From a virus, in IMG/VR virus record IMGVR_UViG_3300045988_033297, positions 1 through 5,636 of that record: DNA of 5,636 bases; one strand, written 5' to 3'. This document shows, in pieces, positions 459 to 5,636 of the stretch (positions within the stretch are counted from its first letter, which is position 1; every line of letters starts with the position of its first letter). A model generated the notes under the pieces. It worked only from the letters and a program-made list of their open reading frames with translations. It had not been told where the DNA came from and searched no databases. The position numbers were made by a program, and so were the translations under genes.

Positions 459-737
459 ATGATCCTGGAATACTATGCCATCAAAGACACCAAAGTCGCC
501 TTTATGAATCCGTTCATGCAGCACAACAAGGCAGAAGCCATCCGATCTTTCCGCAGCGTCCTGGCAGATGAACGCAGCGAGGCAGCCAAAAACCCGGCAG
601 ATTATGAACTCTGGTACGTTGGACAGTGGGACGACGCAACGGGCATCATGATGGGCGGTCAGCCGCAGTTTATCGAAAACGGAGTGGAGGGTTTGAAAAA
701 TGCCGAAAACCGAAGTGCACATCTGGAGTCGATTTGA
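459..737 (+). CDS. VP5: VP5-like nonstructural protein of Gokushovirinae (92 aa)
   Basis: This is ORF-track frame 426-737, but the ATG at 459 has AAGGAG (445-450) 8 nt upstream. The pattern Y.IKD.K...F..PF...N..EAIRSF......E.S....NP.DYELW.VG.WDD.TG matches the VP5 family pattern as I recall it. Confidence 0.8.
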   Translation: MILEYYAIKDTKVAFMNPFMQHNKAEAIRSFRSVLADERSEAAKNPADYELWYVGQWDDATGIMMGGQPQFIENGVEGLKNAENRSAHLESI

Positions 738-1206
738 TCGACCGGACACGATCCCAGCGCCAGAGGGCACCGGCACAGAGCCGGAGTACATGGAAGCGAT
801 CGACGAAAACGGTCACAAAACACTGAAAAAAACCGGAGAAACCGACACTTACGCCATGATCCAGGCGAGTCTGGAAGAAACCAAGATCGAGAACATCATC
901 AAACGAGCCACGCTGGGCGATCCGACCGCACTCACGCAGACAATGGGCGCATATATGGACACCACAGACATGCCAACAAGCCTGGCCGAGATGCAGAACG
1001 CCATTATCACGATCGAAAACGAATTCAACAAGCTGCCTCTCGAAACTCGTCTCAAGTTTAACCAAAGTGCAGAAAAATATATCTCTATGTACGGCTCTGA
1101 AGAATGGGCCAAAATCATGGGATATGAAAAAATTCAGCAAAATGCACAAACAAAAGCCTCAGCTGAGGCAGAGGAGATTGTGCAGAAAGGAGAAAATAAA
1201 GAATGA
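700..1206 (+). CDS. VP3: VP3 internal scaffolding protein (168 aa)
   Basis: GGAGG (686-690) lies 9 nt before the ATG. It sits immediately upstream of VP1. The sequence ...IENIIKR...GAYMDTTDMPTSLAEMQNAIITIENEFNKLPLETRLKFNQSAEKYISM... resembles the gokushovirus scaffold family. It overlaps VP5 by 38 nt and VP1 by ATGA. Confidence 0.85.
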   Translation: MPKTEVHIWSRFDRPDTIPAPEGTGTEPEYMEAIDENGHKTLKKTGETDTYAMIQASLEETKIENIIKRATLGDPTALTQTMGAYMDTTDMPTSLAEMQNAIITIENEFNKLPLETRLKFNQSAEKYISMYGSEEWAKIMGYEKIQQNAQTKASAEAEEIVQKGENKE

Positions 1207-2924
1207 ACCGAAATTCTGAAAGCCATTTCGCACAAATTCCACATGCAGACATCAGCCGATCGAAGTTCTACCGAAACTCAGACCATAAGACAACGTTCAA
1301 CGCCGGGCAGCTCATCCCGATCTACTGCGACGAAGTTCTGCCGGGAGACACACATCAGATGGACATGAGCGCACTGATCCGGATGAGCACACCGATCTTT
1401 CCGACCATGGACAATCTTTACTGCGATTTTTACTTTTTCTTCGTCCCAAACCGTCTCACCTGGATTCACTGGAAAGAATTCATGGGCGAAAACACACAGA
1501 GCTACTGGACACAACCGACTGAATACCAAATACCAGTCATTGACACAACAAAAAACAAAGAATCAAAAACAAATGGAATCGCAAACGGAAGCACCCTCGA
1601 CTACTTCGGAATACCAACCAAAACCAATGGGCTAAAAATCAATGCACTTCCACAAAGAGCATACCAACTGATCTGGAACGAATGGTTCAGAGATCAAAAC
1701 ATACAGCAGCCATGCGAAATCCCATTAGATGAAACAACAGTACATCAAGATGGAACAAGTACAGAAAAACATAACTCTGGACAACCATACAAATACTTCA
1801 TAACAGAATACGTCACATTAGCAAAAAGCGGATATGCATGCTTACCTGTCAACAAATATCACGACTACTTCACCAGCTGCCTGCCGCAACCGCAGAAAGG
1901 CGCAGCCGTTCTGCTGCCGATGAGCGGAAATGCAATCATAGGTTATGGAAACGCCGGAACCGGAAAGCTATACAACAACGAAGACTTTAATACACTCGGC
2001 TGGACCAGCACGGCAACCGGATGGAAACACGACATAAACGGAATGTCAGCAAACACAACAGCAACAAAAAACGACGGAAATATCGCATCAATCGGAACCT
2101 ATCCGACAGGAAGCGGAACAACAGAAGCAGTCAGCCTAATCGCAGACCTGGGCAAAGTCACAGGCGCAACGATCAATCAGCTCCGTCAGGCATTCCAGAT
2201 TCAGAAACTTCTGGAACGGGATGCACGAGGCGGCACAAGATACACCGAAATTCTGAAAGCACACTTCAACGTGACTTCTCCGGACTCTCGCCAGCAGCGA
2301 CCAGAGTATCTTGGTGGCTACAGAATGCCGATCAACATCACGCAGGTGGTACAGAACTCTGAAACCACAGCAACGAGTCCGCAGGGCAACACCGCAGCAT
2401 TTTCAGTAAGTGGCATGAACAAGTCAATGTTCACAAAAAGCTTTACTGAGCACGGATATATCATCGGTCTGGCAGCCGTCAGAACCGAGCATACTTACCA
2501 ACAGGGCATTGAACGCATGTGGAGCCGAAAAGGCAGATATGACTTCTACTGGCCGGAACTTGCGAATATCGGAGAACAAGCAGTGCTCAACAAAGAAATT
2601 TATGCACAGGGCACAGCGGCAGACGAAGAAGCGTTCGGCTACCAGGAGGCCTGGGCAGACTATCGGTACAAGCCGAGCCGAGTGTCAGGCGATATGCGGT
2701 CAAACTACAACCAGACGCTGGACAGCTGGCACTATGCCGACAACTACACAGAGCAACCAAAACTGTCGAGCACCTGGATGATGGAGACCATGAACAACAT
2801 CGACCGGACTCTTGCAGTTCAAAGCAGCGTAGAAGACCAGTTCATTGCAGACTTCTATTTCAAAGCACAGACCACAAGGCCGATGCCTGTCTACAGTGTA
2901 CCGGGCCTTATCGACCATCACTAA
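1203..2924 (+). CDS. VP1: VP1 major capsid protein (Microviridae F-protein family), 573 aa
   Basis: Hallmark N-terminus SHFAQIPHADISRSKF...HKTTFNAGQLIPIYCDEVLPGDT...MSTPIFPTMDNLYCDFYFFFVPNRL. Internal TINQLRQAFQIQKLLERDARGGTRYTEILKAHFNV. C-terminal RPMPVYSVPGLIDHH. Confidence 0.97.
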   Translation: MNRNSESHFAQIPHADISRSKFYRNSDHKTTFNAGQLIPIYCDEVLPGDTHQMDMSALIRMSTPIFPTMDNLYCDFYFFFVPNRLTWIHWKEFMGENTQSYWTQPTEYQIPVIDTTKNKESKTNGIANGSTLDYFGIPTKTNGLKINALPQRAYQLIWNEWFRDQNIQQPCEIPLDETTVHQDGTSTEKHNSGQPYKYFITEYVTLAKSGYACLPVNKYHDYFTSCLPQPQKGAAVLLPMSGNAIIGYGNAGTGKLYNNEDFNTLGWTSTATGWKHDINGMSANTTATKNDGNIASIGTYPTGSGTTEAVSLIADLGKVTGATINQLRQAFQIQKLLERDARGGTRYTEILKAHFNVTSPDSRQQRPEYLGGYRMPINITQVVQNSETTATSPQGNTAAFSVSGMNKSMFTKSFTEHGYIIGLAAVRTEHTYQQGIERMWSRKGRYDFYWPELANIGEQAVLNKEIYAQGTAADEEAFGYQEAWADYRYKPSRVSGDMRSNYNQTLDSWHYADNYTEQPKLSSTWMMETMNNIDRTLAVQSSVEDQFIADFYFKAQTTRPMPVYSVPGLIDHH

Positions 2925-2935
2925 TCGCCACAGAG

Positions 2936-2967
2936 GCGGCTCAGAGGCTCTCTGAGCCGCTTTTCTT
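2936..2967 (+). terminator. Rho-independent terminator after VP1
   Basis: GCGGCTCAGAG (2936-2946) pairs perfectly with CTCTGAGCCGC (2950-2960): an 11-bp GC-rich stem with a 3-nt loop, followed by TTTTCTT (2961-2967). Confidence 0.8.
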
Positions 2968-2984
2968 ATCAGGAGGAAAACTAT

Positions 2985-3821
2985 ATGGGACTCTTAGGAA
3001 CAATCGCCGGAATGGTGCTCCCAAACGTCATAAACTGGGGATTAGGACAAATCTTCGGAGGAGGAGCAAACAGCACAACCCAAGGAGCAAGCCATAGCCA
3101 GGGCGGCAGCACAACACAGAGCCAGAGCGGCACAAACGACCAATTCAATGCACAGCAAGCACAGCTCAACCGAGACTATCAGACCATGAGCCAGGCGATC
3201 CAGGGCAATTACAACATGAAAAGCATGATCATGAATATGGGCTACAACACCATGGGAGCCATCATGCAAGGCGTGTACAACGGAATCAGCCAAAAAGCAG
3301 CCATGAACTACAACTCAGCTGAAGCAGCAGCAAACAGAGCTTGGCAAACCGAAATGAGCAACACAGCCTATCAGAGAGCTGTGCAAGACTTAAAAGCCGC
3401 AGGACTTAACCCGATCTTAGCAGCACTTCACGGAGGAGCCGTCACAGGATCAGGAGCATACGGCAGCTCAGGAGCCAGCACGATCGGAGCACCAAGCACA
3501 AGCGCAGCAAGCATCTCAGCCATGCCAGGCACAGCAACACCAAGCAGCCAATGGAGCTGGTCAAAGGGTTCCAGCTGGAACGAAAGCACGGCCTATAACA
3601 TGGGCGAATCCGTAATGCGATACTATGCCGATCCAAACAACAGCGCAAAAAACCTCAAAGAAACAGGAGACAAAGTTGTAAAAGCCGGCAAAGAAGCAGG
3701 CGAGCAAATCAAAGACGCATACAAATACTCAAGCCCGGCAAACAAAATGAATCGCAACTCAGCAAACATCAACGGCAAAGGATATACAAGCCCAGGCAAC
3801 GGAGCAGGCAGAACAAAGTAA
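2985..3821 (+). CDS. VP2: VP2 DNA pilot / minor capsid protein (278 aa)
   Basis: AGGAGG (2971-2976) lies 8 nt before the ATG. It has a hydrophobic N-terminus (LLGTIAGMVLPNVINWGLGQIFGG), S/T/G/Q/N-rich low-complexity tracts, and the pilot-protein signature AWQTEMSNTAYQRAVQDLKAAGLNPILAA (nt 3339-3425). Confidence 0.9.
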   Translation: MGLLGTIAGMVLPNVINWGLGQIFGGGANSTTQGASHSQGGSTTQSQSGTNDQFNAQQAQLNRDYQTMSQAIQGNYNMKSMIMNMGYNTMGAIMQGVYNGISQKAAMNYNSAEAAANRAWQTEMSNTAYQRAVQDLKAAGLNPILAALHGGAVTGSGAYGSSGASTIGAPSTSAASISAMPGTATPSSQWSWSKGSSWNESTAYNMGESVMRYYADPNNSAKNLKETGDKVVKAGKEAGEQIKDAYKYSSPANKMNRNSANINGKGYTSPGNGAGRTK

Positions 3822-3850
3822 TTGACATACATCAAATAAAAGTGTATAAT
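3822..3850 (+). promoter_or_regulatory. Consensus sigma70/sigmaA promoter P1 (TTGACA-17 nt-TATAAT) for the RHH-rep unit
   Basis: TTGACA at 3822-3827, an exact 17-nt spacer, TATAAT at 3845-3850, with TG immediately 5' of the -10. It starts the nucleotide after the VP2 stop and is nearly identical to the block at 5286-5315. Confidence 0.8.
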
Positions 3851-3871
3851 AACGCATAGGAGGTGTATGTT

Positions 3872-4039
3872 ATGAAATGCACAGTAAGAAGAATCAATGT
3901 GAATCTCACAGAGAAAGAAAACGAAGCTCTCAAACGAACGGCAAAAGCCATGGGTGAAAAAGAAAGCGAGATCGTACGCAAAGCAATCATGAGTTTTACC
4001 AGCAATGGTAAAGATTTACAGGGAAATAATGGTCAGTAA
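3872..4039 (+). CDS. CopG/Arc/MetJ-type ribbon-helix-helix transcriptional regulator (55 aa)
   Basis: Absent from the ORF track. AGGAGG (3858-3863) lies 8 nt before the ATG at 3872; stop TAA is at 4037-4039. The product is MKCTVRRINVNLTEKENEALKRTAKAMGEKESEIVRKAIMSFTSNGKDLQGNNGQ. RINVNL (strand), EKENEALKRTAKAMG (helix A) and EKESEIVRKAIMSF (helix B) form a textbook RHH pattern. Confidence 0.75.
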   Translation: MKCTVRRINVNLTEKENEALKRTAKAMGEKESEIVRKAIMSFTSNGKDLQGNNGQ

Positions 4040-4065
4040 ATAGGAACCGTTCGCGGCATCGCTGT

Positions 4066-4107
4066 CACCTAGCCCCCTTACATCAAGTAGGGCTCGGGGG
4101 CTAGGTG
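4066..4107 (+). other. Perfect 12-bp GC-rich stem-loop between the RHH gene and rep (candidate origin or regulatory hairpin)
   Basis: CACCTAGCCCCC (4066-4077) is the exact reverse complement of GGGGGCTAGGTG (4096-4107). The 18-nt loop TTACATCAAGTAGGGCTC contains TACATCAA (4079-4086). There is no T-tract afterwards, so it is not a canonical terminator. The rep RBS begins 4 nt downstream. Confidence 0.7.
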
Positions 4108-4120
4108 CCAGGGGGAGGAG

Positions 4121-5161
4121 GTGAAGACCGATTTGGGCTGTAAATTTCCAATTGTGCAAGACACAAAAACAGGCAGATTTTTGAAAGAGTACGAGGGAAA
4201 ACTTTACTACAAGTGGAACGACTATGACGGTAAATCGACAAACGCAATCATCACAGATGAACGCTACCGTCTCATACCGTGCGGTAGGTGTACCGAGTGC
4301 CGATTAGCGTACTCGAGAGAGTGGGCAAACCGCTGTGTACTCGAATCACTACTCTACAAGTCGAACTGGTTCATAACACTGACTTACAACCCTGAGCAGA
4401 TTCCAACACTAAGGCTCGATACAGGTGAACTGTACAGAGGAGGTGTGCAAGAAGTACAAAATGGTAAAGTGTTAGTGTCTAACACACTGTTCCATGACGA
4501 TGTGCAAAAATTCCTCAAAAAACTGAGATTCCACCTCGCAAAGGCTGGAGAACCAGAAATCCGATACTACATGTGCGGAGAGTATGGCAGCACAACACAA
4601 CGGCCACACTACCACATGATCGTCTACAATCTGAATGTGCCTGATCTTGAGTTCTACAAGCTTAACGAACTACATCAACCTTACTTTCAAAGCGAATGGC
4701 TTGAAAAAATGTGGGGACATGGGTTTGTAACACTCGGAGAAGTAAACTGGAATACCTGCGCATACGTGGCAAGGTACATCATGAAAAAAGTGAAAGGAGA
4801 TAAAGCAGAAGAATTTTATAAAAGCATCGGAAAAACACCAGAATATACAAGAATGAGTTTAAAACCAGGAATAGGAGCAAAATACTATGAACTGAATAAA
4901 GAACAAATCTATAAATTTGATCAAATCATCATACCAGGAAAACAAGCAAAAAAAGTACAGCCATCAAAATATTTCGACAAGCTGTATGATATAGACAATC
5001 CAGAAAGGATGCAGGAAATCAAAAAAGCACGTGAAAAAAATGCACGCCTTGCTCAGCAGCTCAAATTAAGCAAAACCACAAAGGAACTGTGGGAACAGCT
5101 TAAAATAGAGCACGAAGCCAAACAAGACGCATACAAAAAACTTATAAGACCGCTAGAATAG
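4121..5161 (+). CDS. VP4: VP4 replication initiator, HUH rolling-circle endonuclease (346 aa from GTG 4121; alternative TTG start at 4133)
   Basis: RCR motif 1 is FITLTY (aa 84-89). HUH motif 2 is RPHYHMIVY (nt 4601-4627). Motif 3 is AYVARYIMKK with Tyr215 and Tyr219 (nt 4763-4777). A Cys cluster CGRCTEC lies at aa 54-60. The G-rich RBS GGGGGAGGAGG (4111-4121) abuts the GTG. A TTG at 4133 would give MGCKFP..., resembling the typical M.C..P N-terminus of VP4. Confidence 0.93.
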   Translation: MKTDLGCKFPIVQDTKTGRFLKEYEGKLYYKWNDYDGKSTNAIITDERYRLIPCGRCTECRLAYSREWANRCVLESLLYKSNWFITLTYNPEQIPTLRLDTGELYRGGVQEVQNGKVLVSNTLFHDDVQKFLKKLRFHLAKAGEPEIRYYMCGEYGSTTQRPHYHMIVYNLNVPDLEFYKLNELHQPYFQSEWLEKMWGHGFVTLGEVNWNTCAYVARYIMKKVKGDKAEEFYKSIGKTPEYTRMSLKPGIGAKYYELNKEQIYKFDQIIIPGKQAKKVQPSKYFDKLYDIDNPERMQEIKKAREKNARLAQQLKLSKTTKELWEQLKIEHEAKQDAYKKLIRPLE

Positions 5162-5168
5162 CTGAATA

Positions 5169-5212
5169 AGGGCGCAACACGGAATCTGACCTCCACGTTG
5201 CGCCCTGCTTTT
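5169..5212 (+). terminator. Probable terminator after rep (10-bp stem, large loop, short T-tract)
   Basis: AGGGCGCAAC (5169-5178) pairs with GTTGCGCCCT (5197-5206). The loop is 18 nt, followed by GCTTTT (5207-5212). The large loop and short T-run lower confidence. Confidence 0.45.
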
Positions 5213-5214
5213 CA

Positions 5215-5231
5215 TCGGCATCCAATGCCGA
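5215..5231 (+). other. Small perfect hairpin TCGGCAT-CCA-ATGCCGA
   Basis: 7-bp stem (5215-5221 with 5225-5231) and a 3-nt loop. It is nested inside an alternative pairing GCCCTGC (5202-5208) with GCAGGGC (5234-5240). Confidence 0.6.
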
Positions 5232-5246
5232 GCGCAGGGCCTACAG

Positions 5247-5263
5247 ATAAAATAGCATAAAAT
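5247..5263 (+). repeat. Tandem ATAAAAT-AGC-ATAAAAT (10-nt phase), UP-element-like A/T block upstream of P2
   Basis: ATAAAAT occurs at 5247-5253 and 5257-5263, one helical turn apart, 23-39 nt upstream of the -35 box at 5286. Confidence 0.4.
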
Positions 5264-5285
5264 GATGTATATTTCAAGAAAACAG

Positions 5286-5314
5286 TTGACATACATCAAA
5301 TCTAGATGTATAAT
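5286..5314 (+). promoter_or_regulatory. Consensus sigma70/sigmaA promoter P2 (TTGACA-17 nt-TATAAT) for the acidic small ORF
   Basis: TTGACA at 5286-5291, a 17-nt spacer, TATAAT at 5309-5314. The perfect 7-nt inverted repeat ATACATC (5291-5297) / GATGTAT (5305-5311) bridges the -35 and -10 boxes. Confidence 0.8.
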
Positions 5315-5340
5315 AGAATCAGAAAGAAAGGAGAATAACA

Positions 5341-5502
5341 ATGAAAAGTTACTATGAAGAACATGTAAAAGATTGTGCAGCAGCTCTTTACGACGGCGGA
5401 TGGAGAAGCACAGACAGAAACGAAATACAAAAAGAATACAACATGGACGATGAGTGGACAGATGCAATCTGCGAAGAACTAAAAAAATACGAACAACAAT
5501 AA
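5341..5502 (+). CDS. Acidic small protein of unknown function (53 aa)
   Basis: Absent from the ORF track. AAGGAG (5328-5333) lies 7 nt before the ATG at 5341; stop TAA is at 5500-5502. The product is MKSYYEEHVKDCAAALYDGGWRSTDRNEIQKEYNMDDEWTDAICEELKKYEQQ, with 14 D/E versus 7 K/R. It is flanked by its own consensus promoter and a strong terminator. Confidence 0.65.
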   Translation: MKSYYEEHVKDCAAALYDGGWRSTDRNEIQKEYNMDDEWTDAICEELKKYEQQ

Positions 5503-5511
5503 GAATACTAC

Positions 5512-5551
5512 AAAACACAGGACAAAAAAAGTCTTGTGTTTTTTTTTTTTT
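5512..5551 (+). terminator. Strong rho-independent terminator (stem, A7 loop, T13 tail)
   Basis: CACAGGAC (5516-5523) pairs with GTCTTGTG (5531-5538): 8 bp with one G-U. The loop is A7 (5524-5530). The flanking A-run (5512-5515) can extend the stem. T13 lies at 5539-5551 and is duplicated at 2-14. Confidence 0.85.
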
Positions 5552-5636
5552 GGTAAAATTGAACAAAAAGGAGGCGATATTGTGGACAACCGCTTTTAAT
5601 CCGAACAGAAAAGAAATCATAAGAGTATACGTAGGA
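5538..5636. repeat. Terminal direct repeat, copy 2 (same sequence as 1-99)
   Basis: Identical to 1-99 by eye. It contains a duplicate of the RBS and the first 19 codons of the 43-240 ORF (5580-5636), which is an artefact of linearisation and not a second gene. Confidence 0.9.

Follow-up and report, generated by a model that had tools for sequence, protein, structure and literature searches.

The window analysed here is a stretch of 5,636 nucleotides (nts) from the IMG/VR virus record IMGVR_UViG_3300045988_033297. It holds a circular genome of 5537 bp, the ends of the stretch overlapping by 99 bases (1-99 = 5538-5636), and its source is a gut single-stranded DNA (ssDNA) phage, a gokushovirus-like microvirus, in which all genes lie on the + strand. 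At positions 5286-5551, between the gene of the replication protein Rep and the late operon, lies a short cassette made of a promoter with a putative operator, a gene for an acidic protein of 53 amino acids (aa) and an intrinsic terminator. The cassette is an accessory, mobile, self-contained moron-like unit, and its product belongs to a new protein family, acidic and unannotated in every library tested. The following features lie in and around the cassette:

5265..5270, + strand: upstream half-site ATGTAT, the third RTGTAT/ATACAY copy at the cassette promoter
5286..5314, + strand: consensus sigma-70 promoter with TTGACA (5286-5291), a 17-nt spacer and TATAAT (5309-5314), a 12/12 match
5291..5311: putative operator, perfect palindrome ATACATC-N7-GATGTAT in the promoter spacer, overlapping the -10 element; presumed binding site
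5327..5333, + strand: ribosome-binding site (RBS) AAAGGAG, 7 nts 5′ of the ATG
5337..5593, + strand: block of highest nucleotide conservation with divergent microviruses, covering the open reading frame (ORF), the terminator and the leader of the next operon
5341..5502, + strand: gene of the 53-aa acidic protein, AAALYDGGWR family, predicted three-helix bundle
5512..5551, + strand: intrinsic terminator with a 12-bp stem (5512-5542), a 7-nt loop and T13 (5539-5551)
5551..5559 (= 14-22), + strand: extended -10-like element TGGTAAAAT, immediately after the T-run

Most of this anatomy had been described in an earlier note made from the letters of the window, and the description of the control elements holds. 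The promoter called perfect there scores 12/12, the operator palindrome within it has no mismatch, and the RBS is there as stated. Only two 12/12 promoters occur in the window (3822-3850 and 5286-5314), the remaining candidates reaching 9/12, which is the level of shuffled sequence. The terminator, presented as the strongest of the window, has the longest stem among the terminator-like sites found there, and its RNA fold reaches -14.4 kcal/mol (z = -3.1). The sequence of the hairpin varies by lineage and its pairing is kept in 11 genomes, four pairs being altered on both sides. In most relatives TGGTAAAAT, TGATAAAAT or TGATAGAAT adjoins the T-run, L002 and L019 being the exceptions (loci are numbered with the prefix L throughout). 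The TGGTAAAAT element at 5551-5559 has no -35 match and is, judging from its sequence, probably the promoter of the late operon. Its conservation right after the T-run suggests that T13 may double as a terminator tail and an A/T-rich upstream promoter element.

The gene is found at the same position in about 20 related microviruses (L001-L020), after Rep and before the small ORFs and the genes for the J-like protein, ORF5, the scaffold protein and VP1. A consensus or near-consensus promoter precedes it in nearly all of them (12/12 in most), and in all except L019 a hairpin with T12-15 lies 3′ of it, usually followed by GGTAAAAT or GATAAAAT. Because it recurs at the same position in about 20 genomes, the arrangement is beyond chance. 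The median pairwise ratio of nonsynonymous to synonymous divergence (dN/dS) is 0.22 in frame, compared to 0.54 and 0.79 in the other frames, hence the ORF is under purifying selection. The earlier note had reasoned that a ratio near 1 or disrupted frames would speak against the gene; frameshifts occur in the 3′ half of three single-contig clusters, which are errors or rare pseudogenes, and the 53-aa gene is real. A distinct sub-lineage is formed by L019 (3302-3478) and L099 (MZ821031, 63-239), in which the promoter of the gene reads TTGAAA-16-TATAAT with a TG extension and no terminator is present. The small gene there reads straight into a putative M15-type cell-wall peptidase gene (a likeness seen by eye), and no RHH (ribbon-helix-helix) homologue was detected in the L019 and L099 genomes.

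The cassette is better conserved than the rest of the genome. Between the window and genomes of the L001 type, the 53-aa protein is 79% identical, compared to 62% for J, 55% for VP1, 37% for Rep, 34% for VP3 and 27% for ORF5. In the same pairs, the proportion of synonymous differences (pS) is 0.24-0.28 for the 53-aa gene, corresponding to a synonymous divergence (dS) of about 0.3, and 0.65-0.75 for the core genes, which are saturated. The block at 5337-5593 is the best DNA match of the genome, with 74-82% identity over roughly 230-270 nts to L001-L018, and spans the ORF, the terminator and 40 bases at the start of the next leader. In this comparison, VP1 reaches about 66% in its best parts and most of the genome is unalignable, the cassette promoter itself being conserved only at its hexamers. 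The block is the apparent unit of exchange. Its base composition also differs from that of the genome: the cassette has 34.5% G+C, against 46.1% for the genome, and G+C at third codon positions (GC3) is 33% in the gene, against 54-61% in the structural genes. The RHH and Rep genes likewise have lower GC3 values (39-41%). The early region as a whole (3822-5537; RHH, Rep and 53-aa genes) lies at 33-42% and the structural genes (459-3821) at 54-61%, and the genome may be a mosaic of two sources beyond the cassette alone.

The cassette is also patchily distributed. Among the 80 nearest VP1 relatives in IMG/VR (46-81% VP1 identity), at least 79 have no copy of it. The sole close relative, L110, is 88-94% identical genome-wide and carries a 141-bp deletion in the cassette, which removes the -10 element, the RBS and codons 1-34 including the conserved motif. 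L110 (1-111, 5420-5483) retains TTGACATACATCAAAT, the last 19 codons, the terminator and the leader. A tandem two-domain version of the gene is found directly after VP1 in a distant microvirus from fox faeces (MG945868, L100, 3610-3939), where the second domain is degenerate and a G+C-rich terminator-like hairpin follows. This version is closest to the variants of tailed phages, which suggests a separate capture, and the cassette was apparently captured more than once. Supporting the earlier description of a self-contained moron-like cassette, the unit thus has its own promoter and terminator, a low G+C content and a presence/absence pattern in relatives. The comparisons provide evidence for its exchange among divergent microviruses and with tailed phages. 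Microviruses have been described as genetically isolated, with few accessory genes, and as rarely exchanging genes with other elements (PMC9239249). A cassette that is shared with tailed phages, exchanged between otherwise saturated genomes and apparently captured repeatedly is an exception to this picture.

The same conservation could be read differently, as that of a mainly cis-acting DNA or RNA element (a complementary-strand origin, a packaging signal or a transcription insulator) in which the ORF is incidental in microviruses. Consistent with such an element, nucleotide conservation is the highest of the genome, extends through the non-coding hairpin, T-run and leader, and is accompanied by an unusually low synonymous divergence. 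This explanation is nevertheless very improbable, since the protein is conserved in tailed phages that share no nucleotide similarity, the dN/dS of 0.22 is confined to the coding frame and the fold is predicted with confidence. Furthermore, L110 keeps the hairpin and the leader and has lost the 5′ part of the gene, showing that the two parts are separable.

The 53-aa protein contains 14 D/E and 7 K/R residues, with a net charge of -7, an isoelectric point (pI) of 4.42 and a grand average of hydropathy (GRAVY) of -1.39. The protein is acidic and soluble and lacks a membrane segment, confirming the composition previously reported. The protein was also considered an orphan, which was mistaken. 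A profile search yields a family of at least 1288 clusters at 90% identity, and an exhaustive hidden Markov model (HMM) search yields at least 589 representatives at 50% identity, including 282 below 1e-10. The ORF itself is matched by nineteen protein clusters, which come almost exclusively from contigs of 5-6 kb. Scanning IMG/VR with the alignment of the family returned 85 loci, of which the first 14 are microviruses and the rest are almost all viral contigs of 25-113 kb, taken to be tailed phages. In GenBank and among cultured phages, the family is present in only two records, both Microviridae, and plasmids gave no match. Five loci were found in representative bacterial genomes, including a Clostridia metagenome-assembled genome and Candidatus Gallacutalibacter (class Clostridia); the remaining, doubtful ones are in Pradoshia, in a weak partial match from Comamonas and in a Babeliales-binned contig that resembles a phage fragment.

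Family members are proteins or domains of about 47-55 aa with an invariant core, AAALYDGGWR, followed by D-x-x-x-L-x-x-EY-x-L-[TS]-E-x-E-A-x-x-I-C-x-x-L. Their median net charge is -10, and the identity between microvirus and tailed-phage members reaches about 66%. Tandem two-domain versions exist, as do fusions at either end to other domains, which in the longer members are acidic and unannotated; one member is fused to a GGACT domain. From 74 sequences, AlphaFold2 predicts a three-helix bundle (helices 2-18, 23-33 and 37-52) with a predicted local distance difference test score (pLDDT) of 95.2, in which D-G-G-W-R occupies the first turn.

Several candidate relationships were examined and set aside. 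Similarity to WXG100/ESAT-6-like proteins is sub-threshold in 15 of 74 members (best E = 6.8e-4 in NCBIfam; 4.7e-4 in Pfam for one member) and absent for the window protein, whose 53-aa three-helix model with a G-G-W-R turn differs from the hairpin of about 100 aa with W-x-G. DUF5053 (PF16476), the public label of one relative, matches one of 14 members at E = 0.09 and not the window protein. Matches to DUF7683 and Emfourin are weak, stay below threshold and disagree with the fold. Searching the literature for the motif and for DUF5053 gave no result.

The second 12/12 promoter of the window lies in front of an operon that encodes a small DNA-binding protein and Rep:

3822..3850, + strand: twin 12/12 promoter of the RHH-Rep operon, half-sites ATACAT / GTGTAT
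3872..4039, + strand: RHH protein of 55 aa, pI 9.65, presumed repressor of both promoters

The RHH protein matches, weakly but in a consistent manner, DUF6290 (2.8e-4), NikA-like (0.013) and RHH_1 (0.014) in Pfam, and a repressor family (5.4e-5) and an Arc-like family (0.056) in PHROGs. It is encoded at the same place in relatives, with roughly 33-48% identity. The two window promoters are identical over the first 16 bases, TTGACATACATCAAAT, which recur in the RHH promoter at 3822. Six of the eight RTGTAT/ATACAY sites of the window lie in the two consensus promoters (3827, 3842 and 3863; 5265, 5291 and 5306). In most related microviruses, too, the only consensus promoters are those of the RHH-Rep operon and of the small gene, and short repeats are common to both within each genome (GGTGTA for the L001 type; for the window, ATACAT / RTGTAT). 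The simplest reading of these sequences is that the RHH protein could repress both promoters in trans; it is the likelier regulator because its own promoter shares the 16 identical bases and the same half-sites. A microvirus genome that has the RHH gene and its consensus promoter and no small acidic gene (L135, 3986-4186) indicates that the RHH-Rep circuit exists independently of the cassette.

The earlier note had proposed another partner, an RHH-like protein encoded at 43-240 in the circle. This assignment is not supported: the ORF has no homologue outside this genome and L110 and no Pfam or PHROG match, its product is acidic (pI 5.3), a low-confidence single-sequence model gives two helices with a pLDDT of 65, and it lies past the strong terminator. 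ORF 43-240 is the real orphan. It overlaps a second ORF, 111-347, the products being 65 and 78 aa, and both are present only in this genome and L110. Two substitutions in the overlap alter the 111-347 product and leave the 43-240 product intact, which hints, from few data, that 43-240 is the coding frame there. Close by, an RBS (AAGGAGG, 31-37) is followed by a 5-codon mini-ORF, GTG GAC AAC CGC TTT TAA (VDNRF, 45-62). In L110 (170-212), the start of the mini-ORF is ATG and the TTG of window position 43, the putative start codon of ORF 43-240, is ATA.

Outside microviruses, the surroundings of the gene were established from the genes called in the databases. In three unrelated tailed-phage contexts, 12/12 promoters with fully or partly palindromic spacers (palindromic in most) lie 60-80 nts 5′ of the gene:

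L029: TTGACAATATACTTCCGTAAGTATATAAT
L096: TTGACAATACCACGATATCGTGGTATAAT
L105: TTGACAATTCATCTCAAAAGATGTATAAT

Near-consensus promoters with palindromes precede it in L094, L086 and L103. The adjoining genes often encode DNA-binding proteins. A helix-turn-helix (HTH) gene of the HTH_3 type is found in L021 (9e-10), an excisionase-type HTH in L105 and L022 (L096 has a homologue of the L105 gene) and an Arc-like RHH in L094 (directly downstream), in L087/L029 (flanked by two copies of the whole cassette) and in L107/L109 (divergent). The RHH proteins of L087 and L107 both belong to phrog_13890; no sequence of the window RHH could be aligned with the Arc-like RHH proteins of tailed phages. In L087 and L103, the neighbours are proteins of 247/252 aa whose C-terminal module is AP2-like. 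The AP2 assignment found no confirmation in Pfam and the PDB match to AP2/ERF has E = 0.21, the C-terminal 70 residues matching only PHROG families labelled ‘HNH endonuclease’. AP2 proteins have been reported to be common in anti-CRISPR (acr) loci (bioRxiv 10.1101/2023.05.22.541795). In L108, the family member is the second gene of a two-gene promoter-to-terminator operon, of which the first gene, 27 nts upstream, encodes a homologue of the anti-CRISPR protein AcrIC5 (Pfam E = 7.7e-11, 42 bits against a curated cutoff of 27). This member is the tailed-phage protein closest to those of microviruses, and hhalign finds no relation between the family and the neighbouring AcrIC5 homologue. AcrIC5 orthologues are known in Firmicutes (PMC7913775). 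The family as a whole has no consistent partner gene across contexts, such varied neighbours being expected for a mobile small gene.

The whole cassette of L029 (promoter, palindrome and gene) is duplicated at 5901-6123 and 6853-7075, on either side of the Arc-like RHH gene, and an ORF-free stretch of about 480 nts (6124-6607) separates the first copy from the RHH gene. In the tailed-phage group with the most members (L091, 6157-8091; also L038-L080), a strong hairpin comes after the family gene, and the next 2 kb or so hold no called gene. This stretch is conserved enough to yield similar spurious ORFs in many contigs and may represent a repeat region, an origin or a non-coding RNA.

Antirepressors are known from other phages, such as that of P22 immI and the small RstC of CTX-phi. 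The recurrence of Arc-like RHH and HTH neighbours would fit an antirepressor or a co-regulator, which would bind the RHH, HTH or another repressor of the phage itself and tune the expression of Rep or, in temperate tailed phages, the switch between lysis and lysogeny. Pointing in the same direction, the gene ends an operon with ANT/AntA/pRha antirepressor-domain genes in L091-L093 and stands beside lysogeny modules in L021, L103 and L107. Such a role in the circuit of the phage is rather unlikely. The neighbours are unrelated to each other (HTH_3, excisionase-type HTH, two sequence-unrelated RHH types and AP2-like proteins) while the motif is invariant, a pattern ill-suited to co-evolving pairs. 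Furthermore, neither an integrase nor another lysogeny gene was seen among the microvirus ORFs examined, and the protein has no similarity to Ant families.

Several of the tailed-phage loci occupy positions typical of morons in temperate phages: after the lysis genes, beside an integrase or, as in L101, within the head module, where six small genes form an island on the opposite strand. These positions would fit a fitness or exclusion factor acting from resident phage genomes, the classic role of morons, which shields the infected or lysogenic cell from other phages or benefits the host in another way. This role is distinctly improbable here, given that the protein is soluble and acidic with no membrane segment, that lysogeny genes were not seen in the microviruses carrying the cassette and that the operator in the promoter hints at expression that is transient instead of constitutive.

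Phages are well known to block the replication or transcription of the host with small proteins made early. The 53-aa protein could be such a host-takeover factor unrelated to immunity, binding early on a housekeeping protein of the host that handles DNA or RNA (RNA polymerase or a sigma factor, a replication initiator or helicase loader, or a nucleoid protein) and redirecting resources to rolling-circle replication. This role would explain why the gene is co-regulated with Rep, the promoter design and the operator half-sites being common to both operons. It would also agree with a small and very acidic protein, and with a motif that is invariant in unrelated phages, implying a conserved host partner. 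A takeover function is nonetheless unlikely, because a dispensable gene with a patchy distribution is more in line with a benefit on particular host strains than with a core step of takeover. The AcrIC5 homologue and the neighbours resembling anti-CRISPR-associated (Aca) proteins also argue against it, as does the lack of a Foldseek match in the PDB to known inhibitors of that kind.

The reading tentatively favoured here is that the 53-aa protein is an inhibitor of a conserved host protein, made in an early burst and shut off in trans by the RHH protein of 3872-4039, and that it probably acts against host defence; the whole of this proposal is quite possible. Upon infection, the incoming single strand would be converted into double-stranded DNA and the host RNA polymerase would fire both consensus promoters, expressing the RHH-Rep operon and the 53-aa gene. 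The hairpin and T13 would keep cassette transcription out of the late operon, which would start at the extended -10-like element after the T-run. As the RHH protein accumulates, it would bind the RTGTAT/ATACAY half-sites of both promoters and repress them, so that the 53-aa protein would be made as an early burst. The acidic three-helix bundle, with its invariant AAALYDGGWR helix-turn-helix junction, would then bind and block a conserved host protein. The invariance of the motif across phages with unrelated regulators and lifestyles suggests a conserved host partner rather than a phage-specific one. The best guess for this target is a component of anti-phage defence, and inhibition would possibly occur through charge or DNA mimicry, by analogy with anti-CRISPR and anti-restriction proteins. 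An anti-defence role is favoured because the layout follows the logic of acr-aca loci, for which repression of this kind by an RHH-type Aca protein has been demonstrated (PMC13551039). The timing of expression, the binding of the RHH protein, the host target and the anti-defence role are inferred. More speculatively, the AAALYDGGWR proteins would form a new and widespread anti-defence family of gut Clostridia phages, possibly minimal DNA or charge mimics, and the cassette would be a mobile anti-defence unit of Microviridae. It would have been captured from tailed double-stranded DNA (dsDNA) phages, would have moved between divergent lineages of microviruses and would be under the trans control of the RHH protein, which would also regulate the replication gene. 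Literature searches found no mobile anti-defence unit in Microviridae.

A number of observations weigh against the proposal of an RHH-regulated anti-defence inhibitor. The profile and structure searches called for in the earlier note uncovered the family and gave no significant functional match. Pfam, PHROGs, NCBIfam and PADLOC have no significant match to the 53-aa protein and 14-74 relatives, a sequence profile search of the PDB found nothing significant for the family, and Foldseek with the pLDDT-95 model returned nothing significant from the PDB and only uncharacterised phage proteins from BFVD. The invariant residues A13, L16, Y17, W21, Y33, C44 and L47 may merely form the core of a small fold. 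The co-occurrence with DNA-binding genes, which the earlier note asked about for RHH/HTH genes, holds for about half of roughly 20 independent tailed-phage contexts; the other half has no DNA-binding neighbour. In the most abundant group, the P0059 type, the gene has neither a strong promoter of its own nor a DNA-binding neighbour and is the last of an operon with antirepressor-domain genes, followed by a strong hairpin. Among the fetched loci, only L108 has a known Acr as neighbour, and this homologue is putative. In the window, the presumed regulator heads the Rep operon, a different operon 1.3 kb from the cassette. As for mobility, part of the low synonymous divergence may stem from constraint on the DNA or RNA and not from recent transfer. 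The L110 deletion is seen in a single metagenomic contig, the end of which coincides with the junction, and may reflect a mixed population in the sample.

The cassette takes up about 5% of a 5.5-kb genome, and its benefit to the phage must be substantial. Large and unannotated, the family has members of only about 50 residues, which makes it easy to synthesise and test. If the protein blocks a defence system, it would represent a new class of inhibitors for gut Clostridia and would provide a search route through operator-bearing consensus promoters. If the family serves phages of gut Clostridia against defence, Clostridia would also be indicated as the hosts of this uncultured microvirus clade. 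The window and L110 form a natural pair of wild type and deletion, and L110, if its deletion is real, amounts to a natural knock-out whose genome is otherwise intact.

The remaining genes of the window are the following:

39 aa, + strand: J/VP8-like protein, phrog_10695
+ strand: Phage_ORF5, Chlamy_scaf scaffold protein and VP2, by family matches (Pfam/PHROGs)
573 aa, + strand: VP1, major capsid protein
RBS and GTG start at 4121, + strand: Rep protein, Pfam REP_ORF2-G2P

A G+C-rich inverted repeat (4062-4111; 16-nt arms, 94% complementary, 18-nt loop, no T-run) is placed between the RHH stop codon and the RBS and GTG of Rep, and could be an attenuator, a translational control element or the nicking origin of Rep. 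Just past the Rep stop codon, a hairpin at 5169-5215, AGGGCGCAACACGGA...TCCACGTTGCGCCCT followed by GCTTTTCATC, is probably the terminator of the RHH-Rep operon; it is missing from the list of the terminator scan, probably owing to its short T-run.

Morons, as conceived for lambdoid phages, are promoter-gene-terminator units inserted between conserved genes, classically described in dsDNA temperate phages and expressed from the prophage. The cassette has every sequence-level trait of a moron: its own promoter and terminator, an atypical base composition, presence or absence in relatives and a position between Rep and the late operon. It differs in residing in a small ssDNA genome with tight size limits, in its operator-bearing promoter and in its apparent movement between divergent microviruses. 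A type II toxin-antitoxin system was considered and rejected, as the cassette has one gene alone between its promoter and terminator and family members lack a consistent partner gene. The analogy with P22 immI (Arc, Mnt, Ant) drawn in the earlier note has no specific support. It applies to the strong promoters, here presumably under a small RHH repressor, and to a regulated gene that is presumably harmful when over-expressed. It does not extend further, since neither an Ant homologue nor a divergent Pant/Pmnt arrangement is present, the ORFs examined give no sign of lysogeny and the product has 53 aa versus about 300 aa.

Acidic inhibitors that mimic DNA include Ocr, ArdA, Ugi, phi29 p56, AcrIIA4 and, as proposed, AcrIB2 (bioRxiv 10.1101/2023.05.22.541795). 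Like them, the 53-aa protein is small, strongly negative (-7, with a family median of -10), phage-borne and presumably expressed early, but it has no sequence or structural match and its 53-residue bundle is smaller than most known mimics.

The acr-aca loci offer a further comparison. Experiments have shown that the RHH-type Aca14 acts on inverted repeats over the -10 element to repress its own operon and an adjacent anti-defence operon (PMC13551039), and the presumed repressor of the cassette may similarly control more than one operon. As in loci with Aca14 or Aca1/Aca2, a small acidic protein is placed behind a very strong promoter with an inverted repeat over the -10 element and an RHH or HTH repressor is encoded nearby. 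Horizontal spread among unrelated mobile elements is also common to both, and one relative shares an operon with an AcrIC5 homologue. Differences lie in the regulator, which is not co-transcribed with the cassette, in the carrier, a 5.5-kb ssDNA microvirus, and in the protein, for which no similarity to known Acr or anti-defence families was found. A strong promoter with inverted repeats, the putative sites of the regulator, is present here and in L029, L096, L105, L094, L086 and L103, whereas a downstream HTH or RHH gene in the same operon is absent here and present in L094 (RHH), L096 (HTH-like) and L021 (HTH_3). The acr-aca architecture suggested by the earlier note is thus borne out by the tailed-phage contexts, with their palindromic promoters and DNA-binding neighbours, but not in the window, where the operon has no regulator of its own. 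Strict membership in this class fails because no regulator is co-transcribed and an Acr activity of the product is hypothetical. As a moron-like accessory gene with an Aca-style regulation, the cassette is already known in kind; what is new is the protein family, its presence in ssDNA microviruses, the placement of the presumed trans regulator in the replication operon and the evidence that the cassette is exchanged between divergent microviruses and with tailed phages.

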